A stretch of 64,000 bases of DNA from a virus (Duplodnaviria > Caudoviricetes). A model generated the notes under the pieces. That model saw only the letters and a list, made by a program, of their open reading frames with translations, did not search any database and was not told where the DNA came from. Shown here piece by piece: positions 24,387 to 30,744 of this stretch. Position numbers and translations under genes: made by a program. Location of the stretch: IMG/VR virus record IMGVR_UViG_3300021091_000011, one strand, 5' to 3'. Positions within the stretch are counted from its first letter, which is position 1. Each line of letters starts with the position of its first letter.

Positions 24387-25117
24387 TCGGCCACTCCGTT
24401 TCTAACGATCCACCCAAATTGCCGCTCCGGAATGTTCGAAACCGGAACTACGCAGAAAGGCAACGGACCCACTTGCTCAAAGCGCGCACGCAGCACACCC
24501 TCGAAATAAGAAACTGCGGCTTCGACGGGACTGAAATCTTCCAACAAGTCCTCGGGGCCATGCACGGTCATCACCCAACGAATGTCGGAATGAAGCGTTG
24601 AACGCTTGTAAGCACCCGCGCTCACGCCCAAACGACGCTCCAACTCAGCCTGAATCGCAGGCGCAAGGCTGCGACGACCTTGTGTGGTCGCAAACGCCAG
24701 CCAAGAGAAATAGCGCGCCTTGTCCGGAGGGACGTCGGCCAAAATCGAAGCGGGCGGGGCTTCAACCACCATCGGTTCCGGAATCTCACCCGCAACGTAA
24801 CCCTGAACGCTCACGGGCAGATTCGCAGGTTGAGCCAACGTAAGTGCAGTCTGCTCGGCTGCATCACGCGCAATCTGAAACCGCGCCTCGATTTCACGAG
24901 AAGCGCGTTCCAACATCAAACCCACCAGAATCGGATTCAACGAATCCGTCACCACGGGTACTGCGGGACGAAAGCCCTCAACAGGCAACGGTTCGTTCGG
25001 GTCACGAAACTCAGGAACGTCACCGTCAATCGACGCCCGCTCAATCACCGCTGCGCGGAACATGGGATTGGCGTTGTGCGTATACAGATCGATTCTAGGG
25101 AATGTGTAATCTTTCAT
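24383..25117 (-). CDS. Hypothetical protein
   Basis: 244-aa ORF with ATGA overlaps on both sides. Confidence 0.65.
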   Translation of the reverse strand: MKDYTFPRIDLYTHNANPMFRAAVIERASIDGDVPEFRDPNEPLPVEGFRPAVPVVTDSLNPILVGLMLERASREIEARFQIARDAAEQTALTLAQPANLPVSVQGYVAGEIPEPMVVEAPPASILADVPPDKARYFSWLAFATTQGRRSLAPAIQAELERRLGVSAGAYKRSTLHSDIRWVMTVHGPEDLLEDFSPVEAAVSYFEGVLRARFEQVGPLPFCVVPVSNIPERQFGWIVRNGVAE

Positions 25118-25878
25118 GGTTCCTTCTTACCGCCGCCCAAAACCACCTTTGCCCCCACCTTGATTACACGCTCGGGAACTGCCCAAGGGTCAGGTTGTTC
25201 CGACTGCGAAGGCGCTTGACCTCCACCAATCATAATCCCACCACTCGGAATCTTCGTATTCTGTGACGGCGGCAAAAACGGAGCAGGACGTGAATTCGCA
25301 ACAGGAGTAATAGGCATAACAGGAGCAACAAGCGCGTCAGGCGCACGCGAAAGTTTCTCGGCTATGTCCTGAATGTGCTTACACGCTTTCTTGAAAGCGA
25401 ACGCCTTACAAGAACACGTCCATTGATCATCCGACGTCCGCGTGACCTCATAGACGCTATCTTTGTCGCCCTTCACCGTCCAACGCTCAGGCTCAGGCTC
25501 AGGCGGTTTGACGATTTCGGGCGGCTTGACGAAACCCGATGGGGGAAGCCCGACAAGTTCACGCGCCGCGTTCGTGACCTCATTAGGTGACGCCACAGAC
25601 CAATCACCCTTGCGCTCACTAATCTCCAACGCCAACGCCCGCTGAATCAGGTCCTTAAAATCAGGCAAACCCTCGCCCAAGCCCCCCGGCGCAAAGTTCG
25701 GATTGCGTAGCAGCGTTTCTTCCTGCGTCAACATTCGGGACATCCAAAGCGATTGCCCCGTGCGTGAATTCTTGCAGCCCGAGTTCTGGCACGCGGCGCA
25801 AAACGTCTGCTTGAATTGTTCGGGCGAACTTTTCTGGTGCTCGCCCGAATAGCATTGGTTGAAAAGATCAGGCAACAT
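25114..25878 (-). CDS. SWIM zinc-finger protein
   Basis: WTVKGDKDSVYEVTRTSDDQWTCSCKAFAFKKACKHI (CxC...CxH). An additional N-terminal Cys cluster CAACQNSGC is present. Confidence 0.75.
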   Translation of the reverse strand: MLPDLFNQCYSGEHQKSSPEQFKQTFCAACQNSGCKNSRTGQSLWMSRMLTQEETLLRNPNFAPGGLGEGLPDFKDLIQRALALEISERKGDWSVASPNEVTNAARELVGLPPSGFVKPPEIVKPPEPEPERWTVKGDKDSVYEVTRTSDDQWTCSCKAFAFKKACKHIQDIAEKLSRAPDALVAPVMPITPVANSRPAPFLPPSQNTKIPSGGIMIGGGQAPSQSEQPDPWAVPERVIKVGAKVVLGGGKKEP

Positions 25879-26395
25879 ACTTTGACCAGCAGGTTCGACA
25901 ACGGGCCTCGTAAACGCCGTGTGAACCGACTTCGATCAAATCTGAACTGCGCGAGAGTTTATACGTCCGATTTGCTTTCACGCCACACTTGCACTTGGCG
26001 TTAATCTTCGTGACGCGATCTGCCACGGCCAACAACGCGGGCATCGGCCCAAACGGTTGCCCCTTGTAGTCCAAGTCCAGCCCCGAACAAATCACGCGCA
26101 CGCCTTGATCGGCCAAGACATTGACGACAAGTACGAGTGAATCCGGAAAAAACTGACACTCATCAATGCCCACGACTTTTGCGCCTTTAGACTTCTCCAA
26201 GATCACGTCGAGTCCAGCAGTAGACGTAGGGACATTGATTGCCGGAAACGTAGCGCCGTCGTGAGTCGCCAAATGCGTTTCGTGGTATCTGGTGTCAATG
26301 CTCGGCTTAAAAGCAATCGCCTCGACGCCAATCAAGCGGCGCACGAGTTCGGTCGTCTTACCCGCGTACATACACCCTGCAATCACTTCGATCAT
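25868..26395 (-). CDS. tdk: Thymidine kinase
   Basis: GCMYAGKTTEL (P-loop), FKPSIDTRY, GIDECQFF, GLDLDYKGQPF, and the zinc site CKCG...YEARCRTC. Confidence 0.95.
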   Translation of the reverse strand: MIEVIAGCMYAGKTTELVRRLIGVEAIAFKPSIDTRYHETHLATHDGATFPAINVPTSTAGLDVILEKSKGAKVVGIDECQFFPDSLVLVVNVLADQGVRVICSGLDLDYKGQPFGPMPALLAVADRVTKINAKCKCGVKANRTYKLSRSSDLIEVGSHGVYEARCRTCWSKYVA

Positions 26396-27049: not shown

Positions 27050-27379
27050 CTAACGAATAACTGAGACTTGTTTGAAAAACCTTGAAGCCGAACCGAATGT
27101 CTTGTCTGAACCGCTGGTGACATAATTCGTGATTTCACCGTTGTTGTTAAAAATCCTAGCACCGTCAGTTCTGTTCCAAGTGCCGCCAGCACAATTGGGG
27201 AAACGATTGACCGTGTTCGCTTCGCCGTCGTGTACAAGATTCGCGGGCCAACGACCAATAGGCTGTTTGAAGGTGGTGCCAGCGTCACGCTTGTATCTCC
27301 AATTTTCAGAGCCGTCGTGACGTTCAGAACCGTTTTCTGCGTAGGCTCCACCGTTTAGATTGTCAGACGTGACGATCAT
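27050..27379 (-). CDS. Stand-alone middle (TRD-region) module of a beta-class DNA methyltransferase, copy B3, N-terminally shortened
   Basis: GRWPANLVHDG...SASRFFKQV. Starts at an ATGA overlap with the stop of the DPPY gene. 135 bp are nearly identical to copy B2. Confidence 0.7.
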   Translation of the reverse strand: MIVTSDNLNGGAYAENGSERHDGSENWRYKRDAGTTFKQPIGRWPANLVHDGEANTVNRFPNCAGGTWNRTDGARIFNNNGEITNYVTSGSDKTFGSASRFFKQVSVIR

Positions 27380-27939
27380 ATTGGCTTTCTTGCGACGATG
27401 ATTGGTTCCCAAGCGGGCTTTAATGCGGTGCCGTAACCGGACCATTGCCGAGCGGCATCGGTCGCGGGTGCGGTGATGTTGATGGGTTGATGCTCTTGCC
27501 CCTGATCCATTGCGCGATCAAATGCTTTGCCACCTTTGACCTGCGATTTAGGTCGGTCGTTTGCTGACACGCCCACCACCTCTCGCTCCGCTCCCGCCGC
27601 CTTGTCAATCGCCTTACTGACGTCCATGGACTTCGGGAAGCCTGATCCGTAAGTCCAAGCATGGACTTCAAAACCCACGAATCCCGATTTTTTCAGGGCT
27701 TGGGTCATCCGATGAAAAGTTCTCGTGCCTGAGAAGGCTTTGATAACGCCGTTAGGCTTTAGAATCCTAAAGCATTCGCCCCAAAGTTCGGGTGAATAAG
27801 CGATTCCGGTCGAGTCCCACCCTTTACCCATGAAGCCCAATTCATACGGGGGGTCTGAAACTACGGCGTCTACTGAGTTTGGCGATAGGTCTTTGAGTTT
27901 GACTAGGCTATCGCCGAGAATCAGTCTAACGGTGTTCAT
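27376..27939 (-). CDS. Catalytic (DPPY) N-terminal half of a beta-class N4/N6 DNA methyltransferase
   Basis: LGDSLVKLKDLSPNSVDAVVSDPPYELGFMGKGWD...YGSGFPKSMDVSKAIDK...GTALKPAWEPIIVARKPI*. No FxGxG motif. Confidence 0.85.
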   Translation of the reverse strand: MNTVRLILGDSLVKLKDLSPNSVDAVVSDPPYELGFMGKGWDSTGIAYSPELWGECFRILKPNGVIKAFSGTRTFHRMTQALKKSGFVGFEVHAWTYGSGFPKSMDVSKAIDKAAGAEREVVGVSANDRPKSQVKGGKAFDRAMDQGQEHQPINITAPATDAARQWSGYGTALKPAWEPIIVARKPI

Positions 27940-28706
27940 TCGTCCAGCCCGAAGAAATCGTCAAAGTCAACGTCACGCTGTTTCGGCGTCGTGTCGCAAT
28001 CGGACGTGATTATCGCGCGACCTTCTAAAATGCTGCGCTCGCTATTCCAATGCCGAACTCGGGCGTCCGCAATCGGCAGATAGTCCGGCGTAATCTCGAT
28101 GCCCGTGAAGTTCATGTGCGCGTTCAAGCAGGCAATACCCGTAGTGCCCGAACCCAAAAATGGGTCTACGACGTGCGAGCCTTTGGCGATGTCTTCAAGG
28201 CACCACTCCATGATTTCAACAGGCTTTACTGTTGGATGAAAGTTAGATCGTGCTGAATTAGAACGATTGCGAGGGTTATTAGGACCCGGAGCGTCGGCAT
28301 CACGATCTTCTTCCCAACGCCGTTCTTCTAAATCATGCGTACCCGCTTCGCGTTCCGAAGTCGCGGCTTTCGCCGTGTACGAAAAATTACTCTCAGACGT
28401 CGCCACGAAAATCGCGTCGCGGACCTCAAAGCCCGAGTCCTCGGCTACGCAGACACAATCTGACCCCGTAGCGTCAACGTCATCAGCAGACGCGATGAGC
28501 AAATGACCGCCCGGCTTCAATACGCGCAAGGCTTCGACTTGCCAAACGTCACCCACGCCCCGCGTGACCAACAGCCCATGCGCCGTCGAATCCTCGTGGG
28601 CTTGCCAATCAAAAGCAATCGGGTCATCTACTCGCAGAACCTTCAAGTCCGGCACAGGAGTAGAAATCAGTTTTGTAAGGTAGTCCCAAAGATTGATTGT
28701 GGTCAT
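27936..28706 (-). CDS. SAM-binding C-terminal half of a beta-class DNA methyltransferase, with degenerate N-terminal domain
   Basis: YTAKAATSEREAG, NFHPTVKP, VVDPFLGSGTTGIAC, FTGIEITPDY. The N-terminal part keeps LRVLKPGGHLL and GFEVRDAI but lacks DPPY. Confidence 0.85.
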   Translation of the reverse strand: MTTINLWDYLTKLISTPVPDLKVLRVDDPIAFDWQAHEDSTAHGLLVTRGVGDVWQVEALRVLKPGGHLLIASADDVDATGSDCVCVAEDSGFEVRDAIFVATSESNFSYTAKAATSEREAGTHDLEERRWEEDRDADAPGPNNPRNRSNSARSNFHPTVKPVEIMEWCLEDIAKGSHVVDPFLGSGTTGIACLNAHMNFTGIEITPDYLPIADARVRHWNSERSILEGRAIITSDCDTTPKQRDVDFDDFFGLDE

Positions 28707-29311
28707 TTGATTGTCACCTGTTGAAAGAATCTTGAAGCGCCGCCTTGGTCACCAAGGCCACCGGAGTTTGCGCCATTACGATCTAGTGCGTATTTACCGT
28801 ATGTGAGTCTGCCTAACGCGCCTCTAGACTTCTCACCTGCGCCGCCCGAGGATTTGGTTAAACCGCTTTGTTGGTCTAGTGCGTGTATTGGGCAATCTTC
28901 GTGGCAGAGCCAATTCGTGATCGTTTCTTTTTTTAGGCTGACTTCTTCTAGGTCATTTTGTCCGGCGTGACCCGAAGTAGAGATGCCGCCTTTTGATCTT
29001 GTTCGTGGCGAGTGGCCGTTTGATTTGACGGTCTTGGTGCCTGCGTTAAAGCATTCGGGCAAGTGGTTTAGAACGAGATTAGCGGGCCAGCGACCAATAG
29101 GCTGTTTGAAGGTGATGCCCGCGTCACGCTTGTATCTCCAATTTTCAGAGCCGTCGTGACGTTCAGAACCGTTTTCTGCGTAGGCTCCACCGTTTAGATT
29201 GTCAGACGTGACGATCCGGCATCCGTCGATGTTCAACGCCCCGCAACCGTGTTGCAGGGCGTTTTGAGCGACGGTGCCGATCAGGGGCTTTCTCAGGACG
29301 TGAACGATCAT
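28703..29311 (-). CDS. Stand-alone middle module of a DNA methyltransferase, copy B2
   Basis: MIVHVLRKPLIGTVAQNALQHGCGALNIDGCR...GRWPANLV...GASRFFQQVTIK. Confidence 0.8.
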   Translation of the reverse strand: MIVHVLRKPLIGTVAQNALQHGCGALNIDGCRIVTSDNLNGGAYAENGSERHDGSENWRYKRDAGITFKQPIGRWPANLVLNHLPECFNAGTKTVKSNGHSPRTRSKGGISTSGHAGQNDLEEVSLKKETITNWLCHEDCPIHALDQQSGLTKSSGGAGEKSRGALGRLTYGKYALDRNGANSGGLGDQGGASRFFQQVTIK

Positions 29312-29739
29312 TTGATTGTCACCTGTTGAAAGAAACGAGCAGCCGAACCGTCGTCGTCGTAGCCCGTTGATTCATTACTCCCACCAAGTTTTAGATTGGC
29401 CACACCGCCTTTGTTTGCCGCCCGTCCACCTTGCGATTTGCCTGTCTCTGGAAAAAGCTCCAGCACGTCGTCGCTGCCGTCGTGGACGAGATTAGCGGGC
29501 CATCGACCCGCTTGATGTTGTTGTGTGTCGAAGGCATTACGTTCCCGATTGTTTTGTACGCCGCCTGCGAGTGATCCGCTCTTTGCTGTCAGACTCCCAC
29601 CGGGGAATGCACTCGTTTTGTCTGCTTCCGAGACGAAGCCGACTCTGCATCCGTCGATGTTCAACGCTCCGGCTCCATGAGCCAAGGCGTTTTGAGCGAC
29701 CGTGTCTGACAACGGCTTTCTCAGGACGTGAACGATCAT
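29308..29739 (-). CDS. Stand-alone middle module of a DNA methyltransferase, copy B1
   Basis: MIVHVLRKPLSDTVAQNALAHGAGALNIDGCR...GRWPANLVHDGSDDVL...SAARFFQQVTIK. Start revised to ATG 29739. Confidence 0.8.
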   Translation of the reverse strand: MIVHVLRKPLSDTVAQNALAHGAGALNIDGCRVGFVSEADKTSAFPGGSLTAKSGSLAGGVQNNRERNAFDTQQHQAGRWPANLVHDGSDDVLELFPETGKSQGGRAANKGGVANLKLGGSNESTGYDDDGSAARFFQQVTIK

Positions 29740-30291: not shown

Positions 30292-30313
30292 CGCTGAATA
30301 GCGTTATTCAGCG
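30292..30313. terminator. 9-bp hairpin at the end of the cold-shock gene
   Basis: CGCTGAATA-gcgt-TATTCAGCG; no clear U-tract. Confidence 0.35.
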
Positions 30314-30744
30314 AACCTTACCCCGCAAGCCCTAATGCGGTCCCCCTTGCCGACGGCCTCATAAAACAAGACGTCGTCGCCAATCACGGGCACTCGTTGG
30401 TCCGCGATATCAGCGCGGTGCAGGAAACAAACGCGGGCTTGCTCGTCTTCAATGAAGCCCCAACCTGTACGAATATCAAATGACCGTATGCGGCCTAAGA
30501 CTTCGATAGGCTGCGATACACGCCGGACCATCGCGGCTTTAGGGCTTTGGCCCTCTCCGATAAAATCCGAACGAAGCATGATTTCAACAGGTTCGCCCGG
30601 CAAAGGCGGCGCTTTGTCCTCGCCATTTAGTCGGACGAAAACCGACACATGGAAAAACACACGCTCACGACCGTCACGAGATTTGCAGAAGCCGAAGAAT
30701 CGAATAGGGTCGTATATGTCTACAACCATGACGGGCGCGGGCAT
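30304..30744 (-). CDS. Tandem cold-shock-domain protein
   Basis: Two CSDs: FFGFCKSRDGRERVFFHVS and IRSFDIRTGWGFIEDEQARVCFLHRADI. Confidence 0.8.
   Translation of the reverse strand: MPAPVMVVDIYDPIRFFGFCKSRDGRERVFFHVSVFVRLNGEDKAPPLPGEPVEIMLRSDFIGEGQSPKAAMVRRVSQPIEVLGRIRSFDIRTGWGFIEDEQARVCFLHRADIADQRVPVIGDDVLFYEAVGKGDRIRACGVRFAE

Follow-up and report, generated by a model that had tools for sequence, protein, structure and literature searches.

A putative three-part beta-class DNA amino-methyltransferase with plug-in recognition modules in a family of uncultured phages

Beta-class DNA amino-methyltransferases are defined by motifs IV to VIII, the target-recognition domain (TRD), motif X and motifs I to III following one another in this order on one polypeptide; their catalytic motif IV reads (D/N/S)PP(Y/F/W), and motif X (HPTxKP) comes before the SAM-binding motif I (FxGxG). 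In the type I systems (HsdM2HsdS), specificity lies in a separate subunit, HsdS, in which two variable regions stand between constant ones and recombination gives new specificities; in the HsdS fold (Pfam Methylase_S) conserved helical spacers set two TRDs apart. The natural division of a methyltransferase over two chains, with the C5 motifs (catalytic PC, ENV) distributed between them, is documented for the cytosine-C5 enzymes M.AquI and M.EcoHK31I (PMC3404938), in agreement with the first-pass annotation of the DNA described here, which had named two-chain C5 enzymes as the known natural split methyltransferases. A review of the beta class from 2020 describes homodimers with a division of labour and heterodimers of an active and an eroded subunit, and no split forms; this division of labour is found in METTL3-METTL14, in ciliate MTA1-MTA9 with its DNA-binding partners, and in the M.EcoP15I Mod2 and CcrM dimers (PMC7544214). 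Multispecific C5 methyltransferases of the Bacillus phages SPR, phi3T and rho11s are cited in the same review (PMC7544214, refs 86-87). In the literature on split, multi-subunit or modular phage amino-methyltransferases we found C5 examples, engineered splits and the beta-class review only, and no three-part or plug-in amino-methyltransferase. Here we describe a locus of the IMG/VR virus record IMGVR_UViG_3300021091_000011 (Caudoviricetes), analysed as a stretch of 64,000 nucleotides (nt) that we call the window, which with a probability of roughly 0.7 encodes one beta-class DNA amino-methyltransferase (N6-adenine or N4-cytosine) from three kinds of polypeptide, A, B and C, the B proteins being its plug-in recognition modules.

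The locus (27050-29739, minus strand) consists of five open reading frames (ORFs), tightly chained in the transcription order B1-B2-C-A-B3. ATGA overlaps are present at all four internal junctions (B1/B2, B2/C, C/A and A/B3), 2 nt separate the stop of the upstream gene from the start of B1, and each of the five pieces has its own start codon and no internal stop. The ORFs, their coordinates and the ATGA chaining given in the first-pass annotation were reproduced by an ORF check of the window, as were the motifs it had listed, namely DPPY in A, HPTVKP and DPFLGSGTT in C, the common start of B1 and B2 (MIVHVLRKPL) and the A[SA]RFF end of all three B genes. Of the three interchangeable middle modules that it had counted, B1 and B2 are intact and B3 is a truncated recombinant, which leaves two intact modules in the window. 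The features of the locus are given below (aa, amino acids; VR1 and VR2, variable regions 1 and 2; SAM, S-adenosylmethionine).

29308..29739, minus strand: B1, 143 aa; constant N-terminal block (29641-29739), VR1, GRWPAN, VR2 and constant end ...AARFFQQVTIK
28703..29311, minus strand: B2, 202 aa; long VR2 type with PEC...CHEDCP cysteines
27936..28706, minus strand: C, 256 aa; predicted scaffold subunit
28377..28706, minus strand: C residues 1-110, degenerate copy of the catalytic half (A'), with VDDPIAF at 28611-28631 and the last sheet strand missing; predicted socket for B
28032..28259, minus strand: C residues 150-225, SAM-binding half, with HPTVKP at 28221-28238 and DPFLGSGTT at 28140-28166
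27939..27974, minus strand: C-terminal tail of C, 12 residues, DVDFDDFFGLDE, acidic/hydrophobic; candidate sliding-clamp-binding tail
27376..27939, minus strand: A, 187 aa; catalytic half with DPPY at 27844-27855, ending with the last sheet strand ...EPIIVARKPI; no SAM motif
27050..27379, minus strand: B3, 109 aa; N-terminally truncated B module
27234..27377, no strand: direct repeat of 144 nt, 97% identical to 29073-29216 in B2
29212..29311, no strand: direct repeat of 100 nt, 81% identical to 29640-29739; constant 5' blocks of B2 and B1

Laid end to end in the order A-B-C, the pieces match consecutive segments of the single-chain phage beta-class amino-methyltransferases (PF01555; phrog_67), which read DPPY ... 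EP..V.RKP / TVA.N.L.HG.GALNI..CR ... GRWPAN ... RFF / Y.AKA..ER ... HPTVKP ... FxGSG. Alignment to these homologues (Makemake gp60 and the 515-aa ORF of LR745208) bore out the earlier statement that intact enzymes read A-B-C and that the breaks fall at module boundaries. A is 55% identical to gp60 of Mycobacterium phage Makemake and other mycobacteriophage methylases, and the 515-aa enzyme of the uncultured phage LR745208 has a middle region of the B2 type (39.5% identity with B2, tblastn). The single-chain enzymes have one polypeptide and one middle region, whereas here we found three kinds of protein, several B, sometimes several A, a permuted order and an extra dead A-like half. Judged by their sequences, the parts belong to the beta-class amino-methyltransferase superfamily, and the single-chain organization that defines the class is absent, as the motifs are spread over three polypeptide kinds in the gene order B-B-C-A-B.

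The Pfam domain PF01555 (N6_N4_Mtase) is itself spread over two genes: positions 1-90 of the model are covered by A (27.6 bits, barely over the gathering threshold of 26.7) and positions 149-219 by C (62.7 bits). Among the PHROG profiles, A matches phrog_6025 (192 positions) nearly end to end (profile 11-190), and phrog_3008 (244 positions) is matched by B at 2-84 and by the SAM half of C at 143-217; both profiles are annotated just as 'DNA methyltransferase'. B1-B3 had no match to Pfam, NCBIfam or PADLOC-type families, and only phrog_3008 matches their first ~85 residues. DPPY is present in A and absent from C and from all B genes, and A lacks FxGxG. In alignments, D29-P30-P31-Y32 is invariant in 32 of 32 A proteins, HPTVKP and FxGSG are invariant across 21 C proteins, with the motif IV position eroded and not conserved, and a DPPY-type motif occurs in 0 of the 120 closest C homologue clusters. 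Each motif set is therefore kept, on different proteins. Where a locus has several A genes, these diverge in a variable stretch within the protein and form two subtypes (..GTALKPAWEP.. and ..LKKSWEP..), so that the core may also be combinatorial.

The description of C as a SAM half without DPPY held for its motifs and was incomplete, since C also carries a dead A-like half of ~110 residues. These first ~110 residues are a degenerate A fold in which VDDPIAF replaces ..DPPYEL. and the LKPGGH and GFEVRD blocks are kept, and by alignment the SAM half corresponds to the C-terminal halves of M.RsrI, CcrM and M.BceJIV. C is the only part found exactly once in every locus.

The likeness to the described systems is partial in each case. 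With M.AquI and M.EcoHK31I the locus shares a methyltransferase fold that comes from more than one gene and is assembled in trans; those enzymes, however, are cytosine-C5 methyltransferases of two chains and a single specificity, with no interchangeable module or dead half-domain, and the pieces described here carry DPPY and match PF01555, not the C5 family. METTL3-METTL14 and MTA1-MTA9 also pair an active subunit with one whose motif IV is eroded and which acts as scaffold or recognition partner; they consist of two complete folds, whereas here a dead half-fold of ~110 residues is fused to the only SAM-binding half, recognition would fall to a third, exchangeable protein, and there is one SAM-binding half per A+C pair. 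The two variable regions between constant blocks in B recall type I HsdS, including the phase-variable hsdS shufflons, as a functional resemblance only, no sequence relation having been detected. The type I systems differ in that their HsdM is a whole gamma-class enzyme; the locus described here divides the catalytic fold, lacks a restriction subunit and has its B genes in direct tandem arrays without an invertase. As far as the review's citation goes, the Bacillus phage C5 enzymes likewise combine one catalytic core with several target-recognising domains to evade several restriction systems, with the difference that their TRDs lie in tandem in one polypeptide and the modules here are separate proteins of an amino-methyltransferase.

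The split is kept in all four syntenic relatives that we found, in which the locus lies between a gene for a 179-aa protein upstream and genes for a 151/165-aa protein and thymidine kinase downstream. Their arrangements are the following.

L045 (IMG/VR): B-C-A
L123 (ENA scaffold): B-B-B-C-A
L003 (IMG/VR): six B, C, two A and one more B (seven B in total)
NCBI assembly GCA_041443045.1 (43.5-kb contig): in-frame B-C fusion, then A

The survey of related phages that had been proposed thus returned the same split points with a varying B copy number (1, 3 or 7 in the syntenic relatives). Between the window and these relatives, the ratio of nonsynonymous to synonymous substitution rates (dN/dS; Nei-Gojobori, NG86) was 0.055-0.078 for C, 0.08-0.15 for A and 0.088 for B2, and 0.05-0.085 for the flanking genes; B3 gave no value because its dS is saturated. 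With dN/dS far from 1 and the split kept in relatives, the earlier argument that the pieces are not products of random decay stands. In GCA_041443045.1, a 392-aa Tet_JBP (TET/JBP dioxygenase) gene lies directly after the B-C fusion and A, which is an odd neighbour for an amino-methyltransferase; phage TET enzymes act on 5-methylcytosine.

The assembly was checked against Logan contigs. Three lake-water runs, one of which may be the source sample, gave contigs that are identical to the window (100%) and span upstream/B1, B1/B2, B2/C and C/A, which confirms four junctions; the A/B3 junction (27376-27379) is bridged by none of the listed contigs, which break at repeats. Together with the independent assemblies, this bridging excludes misassembly of the overall layout. 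One contig in each of the runs X1-X3 joins the interior of A (27776) to the B1 constant block (29666), skipping 1,889 nt, at about baseline depth and with ~30 nt on the short side; this may be a co-occurring rearranged variant or a chance match and we left it uninterpreted.

Beyond the syntenic relatives, an IMG/VR search with C and with an alignment of B returned ~35 further contigs with separate, mostly overlapping A, B and C genes. These contigs are distant (C ~40% identical), have 1-6 A, 1-6 B and a single C each, and some come from genomes of 170-375 kb. Their typical order is A-B-C and the arrays vary, as in the following examples.

L004: B-A-B-A-A-B-A...C
L008: A-B-B-A-B-B-C
L117: C, then six A and six B genes

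The same break points in ~40 independent viral contigs place the split far beyond chance. Out of 1.84 billion representatives, a profile of C picked up 1,610 clusters (50% identity) at E<=1e-30. The system is therefore that of a large family of uncultured phages and is not unique to the window phage, which fits the features of the tripartite A/B/C family (A ending ..EP....[RK]K; B running from MI..[VL].RKP to ..SRFF..; a single C that combines a dead half with a SAM half; overlapping genes), except for B3, which lacks the B start. The 3.1-kb region had no megablast match in 50,697 phage records, and in the same number of cultured or deposited phage records no tblastn match covered at least 80% of C. 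The C type was also absent from 185,579 prokaryote species, one genome each, where the profile scan found ordinary methyltransferases only (24-31% identity or the SAM half alone) and no host or prophage lead. C is thus so far a feature of uncultured phages.

Several candidates were left out of the count of split loci. L049, which resembled a gene split in two (A / B-SAM half), is a single frame interrupted by an in-frame stop, and L092 and L098 look like frameshifted intact genes. Mycobacterium phage MTBP1 (L207, OR195094.1 36267-39296) has four consecutive DNA methyltransferase coding sequences, which together are one A-B-S enzyme (S, SAM half) cut elsewhere and lacking a dead-half scaffold; its fragments comprise an N-terminal A part with extra sequence, the rest of A with B, and the SAM half. 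Proteus phage Isfahan has an intact 400-aa gene.

Natural fusions were observed among 250 proteins of the C family: ~100 B-C, five C-A, two A-B-C and one B-C-A. They argue that A, B and C act in one complex. All fusions that include A have DPPY in their A part and retain the dead half, which is thus not a relic that was lost once A became attached. Two further arrangements were seen: at L119:6915-8849 a 645-aa protein has an extra B domain before a complete A-B-S enzyme, and at L073:7995-9485 a B-C fusion has as its neighbours a short separate A (153 aa) and one more stand-alone B.

Inteins are also found in the family. In L003 and L045 an intein of 355 residues (Hint and LAGLIDADG) interrupts C exactly at HP|TVKP, and the distant L038 has an intein at this site as well. 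An insertion of ~395 aa between YG and SGFPKS in an A protein of L020 is probably an intein, to judge from its intein-like ends, with the Pfam Hint domain not found in it. The C and A of the window have no intein-type insertion. The intein-bearing C genes and the A insertion lie at these positions.

L003:6001-7836: C with intein
L045:1693-3528: C with intein
L038:5995-7908: C with intein
L020:3495-5261: A with the insertion

In the beta-class motif order, the B proteins stand where the target-recognition domain does, between motifs VIII and X. All intact B proteins have the docking blocks in common and differ in VR1 (..CR to GRWPAN) and VR2 (GRWPAN.. to ..G.A.RFF). Pairwise identities showed that the two regions assort independently: the values for VR1 and VR2, respectively, are 91% and 32% between B1 of the window and L003 Bc, 72% and 32% between L003 Bb and Be, and 16% and 82% between L003 Be and Bf. 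B2 as a whole is 86% identical to L003 Ba. The mosaicism extends to B3, whose VR1 is that of B2 (95%) and whose VR2 is of the L003 Bg type (76%), found also in the L045 B. The constant ends are conserved as DNA too, in repeats of 81-100 nt, and these are substrates for the gain, loss and reshuffling of B cassettes among syntenic phages.

B3 lacks the constant 32-residue N-terminal block, which is the block predicted to dock on C and A, and it is probably defective. From the sequence, the 144-nt repeat is read as the trace of the recombination that made B3, which probably formed via the microhomology ATCGTCACGTC, common to the usual B start and a site within B2. At window position 27371, a related strain (90-95% identity, run X4) has the end of A running into a canonical B start (reverse complement CACGTCCTGAGAAAGCCG, HVLRKP), unlike the truncated start of B3.

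The complex of C, A and B2 was modelled with SAM riding along, from our own alignments and with three controls, and read against a calibration set of 80 solved complexes and 110 mismatched pairs. The interaction prediction score from aligned errors (ipSAE) was 0.93 for partner B2 versus 0.45 for the best of the three controls; this mark was reached by 58 of the 80 solved complexes and by 2 of the 110 mismatched pairs. Contact agreement in the complex runs was at least 69% and the predicted local distance difference test (pLDDT) of the partner was at least 57. The multimer prediction of A, C and B that the first-pass annotation had proposed, run for B2, thus gave a complex that passed the controls. 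In the model, B2 inserts its residues 3-8 (VHVLRK) between C 66-72 and C 93-100, a gap that is, in the modelled fold, the slot of the sheet strand absent from the dead half of C. The modelled C-terminal ...RFFQQVTIK of B2 contacts the first 110 residues of C, and its constant block (13-31, 74-83) contacts A 92-114 and 162-177, surfaces which flank that block in the single-chain enzymes. Every confident contact predicted on C involves residues 3-110, and the SAM half has none.

C alone was modelled poorly with AlphaFold2 (AF2), at a pLDDT of 56.7 and a predicted template modelling score (pTM) of 0.40, and a fold search of this model gave a weak pointer only. A natural B-C fusion of the same lineage, P0006, was modelled well and reached a pLDDT of 84.9 and a pTM of 0.74. 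The P0006 model was matched by M.RsrI (1eg2; Z 6.9, root mean square deviation (rmsd) 1.7 Å over 86 residues, model 211-314), CcrM (6pbd_B; Z 7.0, rmsd 3.2 Å, 92 residues) and M.BceJIV (9c3u_C; Z 6.7, rmsd 1.4 Å, 76 residues). Other class I methyltransferases, such as 2pwy_B (Z 7.0, rmsd 5.2 Å, 111 residues), match in a separate alignment, through their second halves, the dead half of the model together with the B strand (about 75-210), and among the alignments listed no solved beta-class DNA methyltransferase spans both halves. Since the beta-class enzymes align with the SAM half alone, the dead half in the P0006 model lies off its canonical place and the sheet edge of the SAM half is free. 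Furthermore, in the C-A fusions A follows directly after the SAM half, that is, with the SAM-binding motif I before the catalytic motif IV. In the simplest reading, A would pair with the SAM half of C to form the active site, and the dead half of C would be an adaptor that holds B.

The earlier proposal of a multi-subunit methyltransferase assembled in trans with alternative B subunits is thus supported by the conserved split, the purifying selection, the natural fusions, a complex model that passed its controls and, in the manner of HsdS, the independent reshuffling of VR1 and VR2. In the mechanism that we propose, C would be the scaffold, its C-terminal half binding SAM and its N-terminal half being a catalytically dead copy of the A fold minus one sheet strand. 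A would give the active DPPY half and complete the Rossmann fold by pairing with the SAM half of C. The constant N-terminal strand and the C-terminal ...RFF strand of B would clip into the dead half, and its constant block (TVAxNAL..GALNIDxCR, GRWPAN) would sit on A, as in single-chain enzymes, with VR1 and VR2 reading the DNA. The ATGA overlaps suggest that the parts may be co-translated. Several B proteins would compete for, or alternate on, one core, so that several motifs would be methylated, the likely purpose being escape from host restriction, and the B array would gain, lose and reshuffle its cassettes via recombination between the constant ends.

Several points weigh against this proposal. 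We infer the pairing of A with the SAM half from fold-search ranges and fusions only. The pass of the complex may partly reflect likeness to single-chain beta-class folds, because split-gene pieces tend to pass, and our own alignments and the riding SAM differ from the calibration, which applies roughly only. The pLDDT of B in the complex is modest (57-58), and the model is silent on contact of VR1 and VR2 with DNA. B also duplicates the ..RKP strand of A and the ..F.Y.AKA strand of C, and the topology proposed here is provisional. Finally, B3, without its docking block, may be inert.

The complex might form without the B paralogues being alternative specificity subunits, with one working B and the others serving as regulators, decoys or spares; or it might bind DNA or counter restriction without methylating several motifs. 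That B sets specificity is something we infer, B3 is truncated in the window and the variable parts of B are modelled with low confidence; but purifying selection acts on the intact B paralogues, their differences are almost confined to two loops at the TRD site of beta-class enzymes, the docking blocks are kept in all of them, and the DPPY and SAM motifs are invariant, so that we regard this explanation as unlikely. It seems very unlikely that the ORFs are joined at expression into one or more single chains by frameshifting, read-through or protein splicing, so that the split would be only apparent. Every junction is a 4-nt overlap, but no common slippery sequence is found at the junctions (AAATGA, GAATGA, ATATGA; AAGTGA/GTGA in L003), and the inteins of the family are complete cis inteins inside C and not split inteins at gene ends. 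The in-frame B-C, C-A and A-B-C fusions of relatives indicate that covalent joining is tolerated; however, joining A to B would double the ..RKP strand, joining B to C in gene order would give B-A'-S and not the A-B-S of intact enzymes, and 6-7 tandem B genes cannot all enter one canonical chain.

Decay of tandemly duplicated methyltransferase genes into pseudogene debris would suit the internal direct repeats and the truncated B3, which point to recent recombination, and fragmented methyltransferase genes do occur in some cultured phages such as MTBP1. It is nevertheless highly improbable in view of dN/dS values of 0.05-0.15, equal to those of neighbouring genes, of the same break points in ~40 contigs and 1,610 C protein clusters, of a start codon in each piece with no internal stop, and of the maintenance of inteins. 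That the tandem B genes and the permuted order are an artefact of assembly is hardly credible: repeats of 100-144 nt are present in the region and short Logan contigs break at them, but the same architecture was found in independent assemblies from other samples and pipelines (IMG/VR, ENA, NCBI), and the lake-water contigs bridge the four junctions named above.

The C-terminal tail of C (DVDFDDFFGLDE in the window; ..SLDDFFGL and ..ISIFDLF elsewhere) is present in 89 of 120 homologue clusters and resembles the tail of the T4 DNA polymerase. The latter (gp43, EKASLDFLFG) binds the gp45 sliding clamp (PMC6212786). By analogy, this likeness suggests that the methyltransferase core may be recruited to the replication fork. 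We tentatively extend this to a combinatorial holoenzyme, which we consider possible and somewhat less than an even bet, in which a clamp-tethered C would take any of several A halves and any B, and nascent phage DNA would be methylated at many motifs at the fork. The B array would then be a fast-evolving cassette library, with VR1 and VR2 recombined into new specificities, a phage counterpart to the shuffled restriction specificities of hosts.

The neighbours of the locus in the window (25114-26395, 30304-30744) encode a SWIM-zinc-finger protein of 254 aa, a thymidine kinase of 175 aa and a 146-aa protein with a cold-shock-domain-like N-terminus. Apart from baseplate wedge proteins, most of the window's large ORFs are without a match among the PHROG profiles, and the phage is thus only distantly related to known phages. 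The only runs that contain the majority of the sequence words sampled from the region are labelled lake-water metagenome; the runs X4-X14 have small word shares only and were left out of this habitat call.

If the proposal is right, the locus encodes a design of sequence-specific methyltransferase that we did not find described, in which the Rossmann fold would be spread over two proteins, a dead half-fold would serve as socket and recognition would reside in exchangeable proteins of 140-220 residues. Such a plug-in design would be an attractive basis for building methyltransferases whose specificity can be exchanged. It would also account for the ability of phages to counter many restriction systems at once in spite of limited coding space, at 0.4-0.6 kb per added specificity, and cassette recombination would explain the change of specificities. 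The family is large and named, where it is named at all, only 'DNA methylase' or 'hypothetical protein', so that the methylomes and host-range determinants of many uncultured phages are probably being misread.

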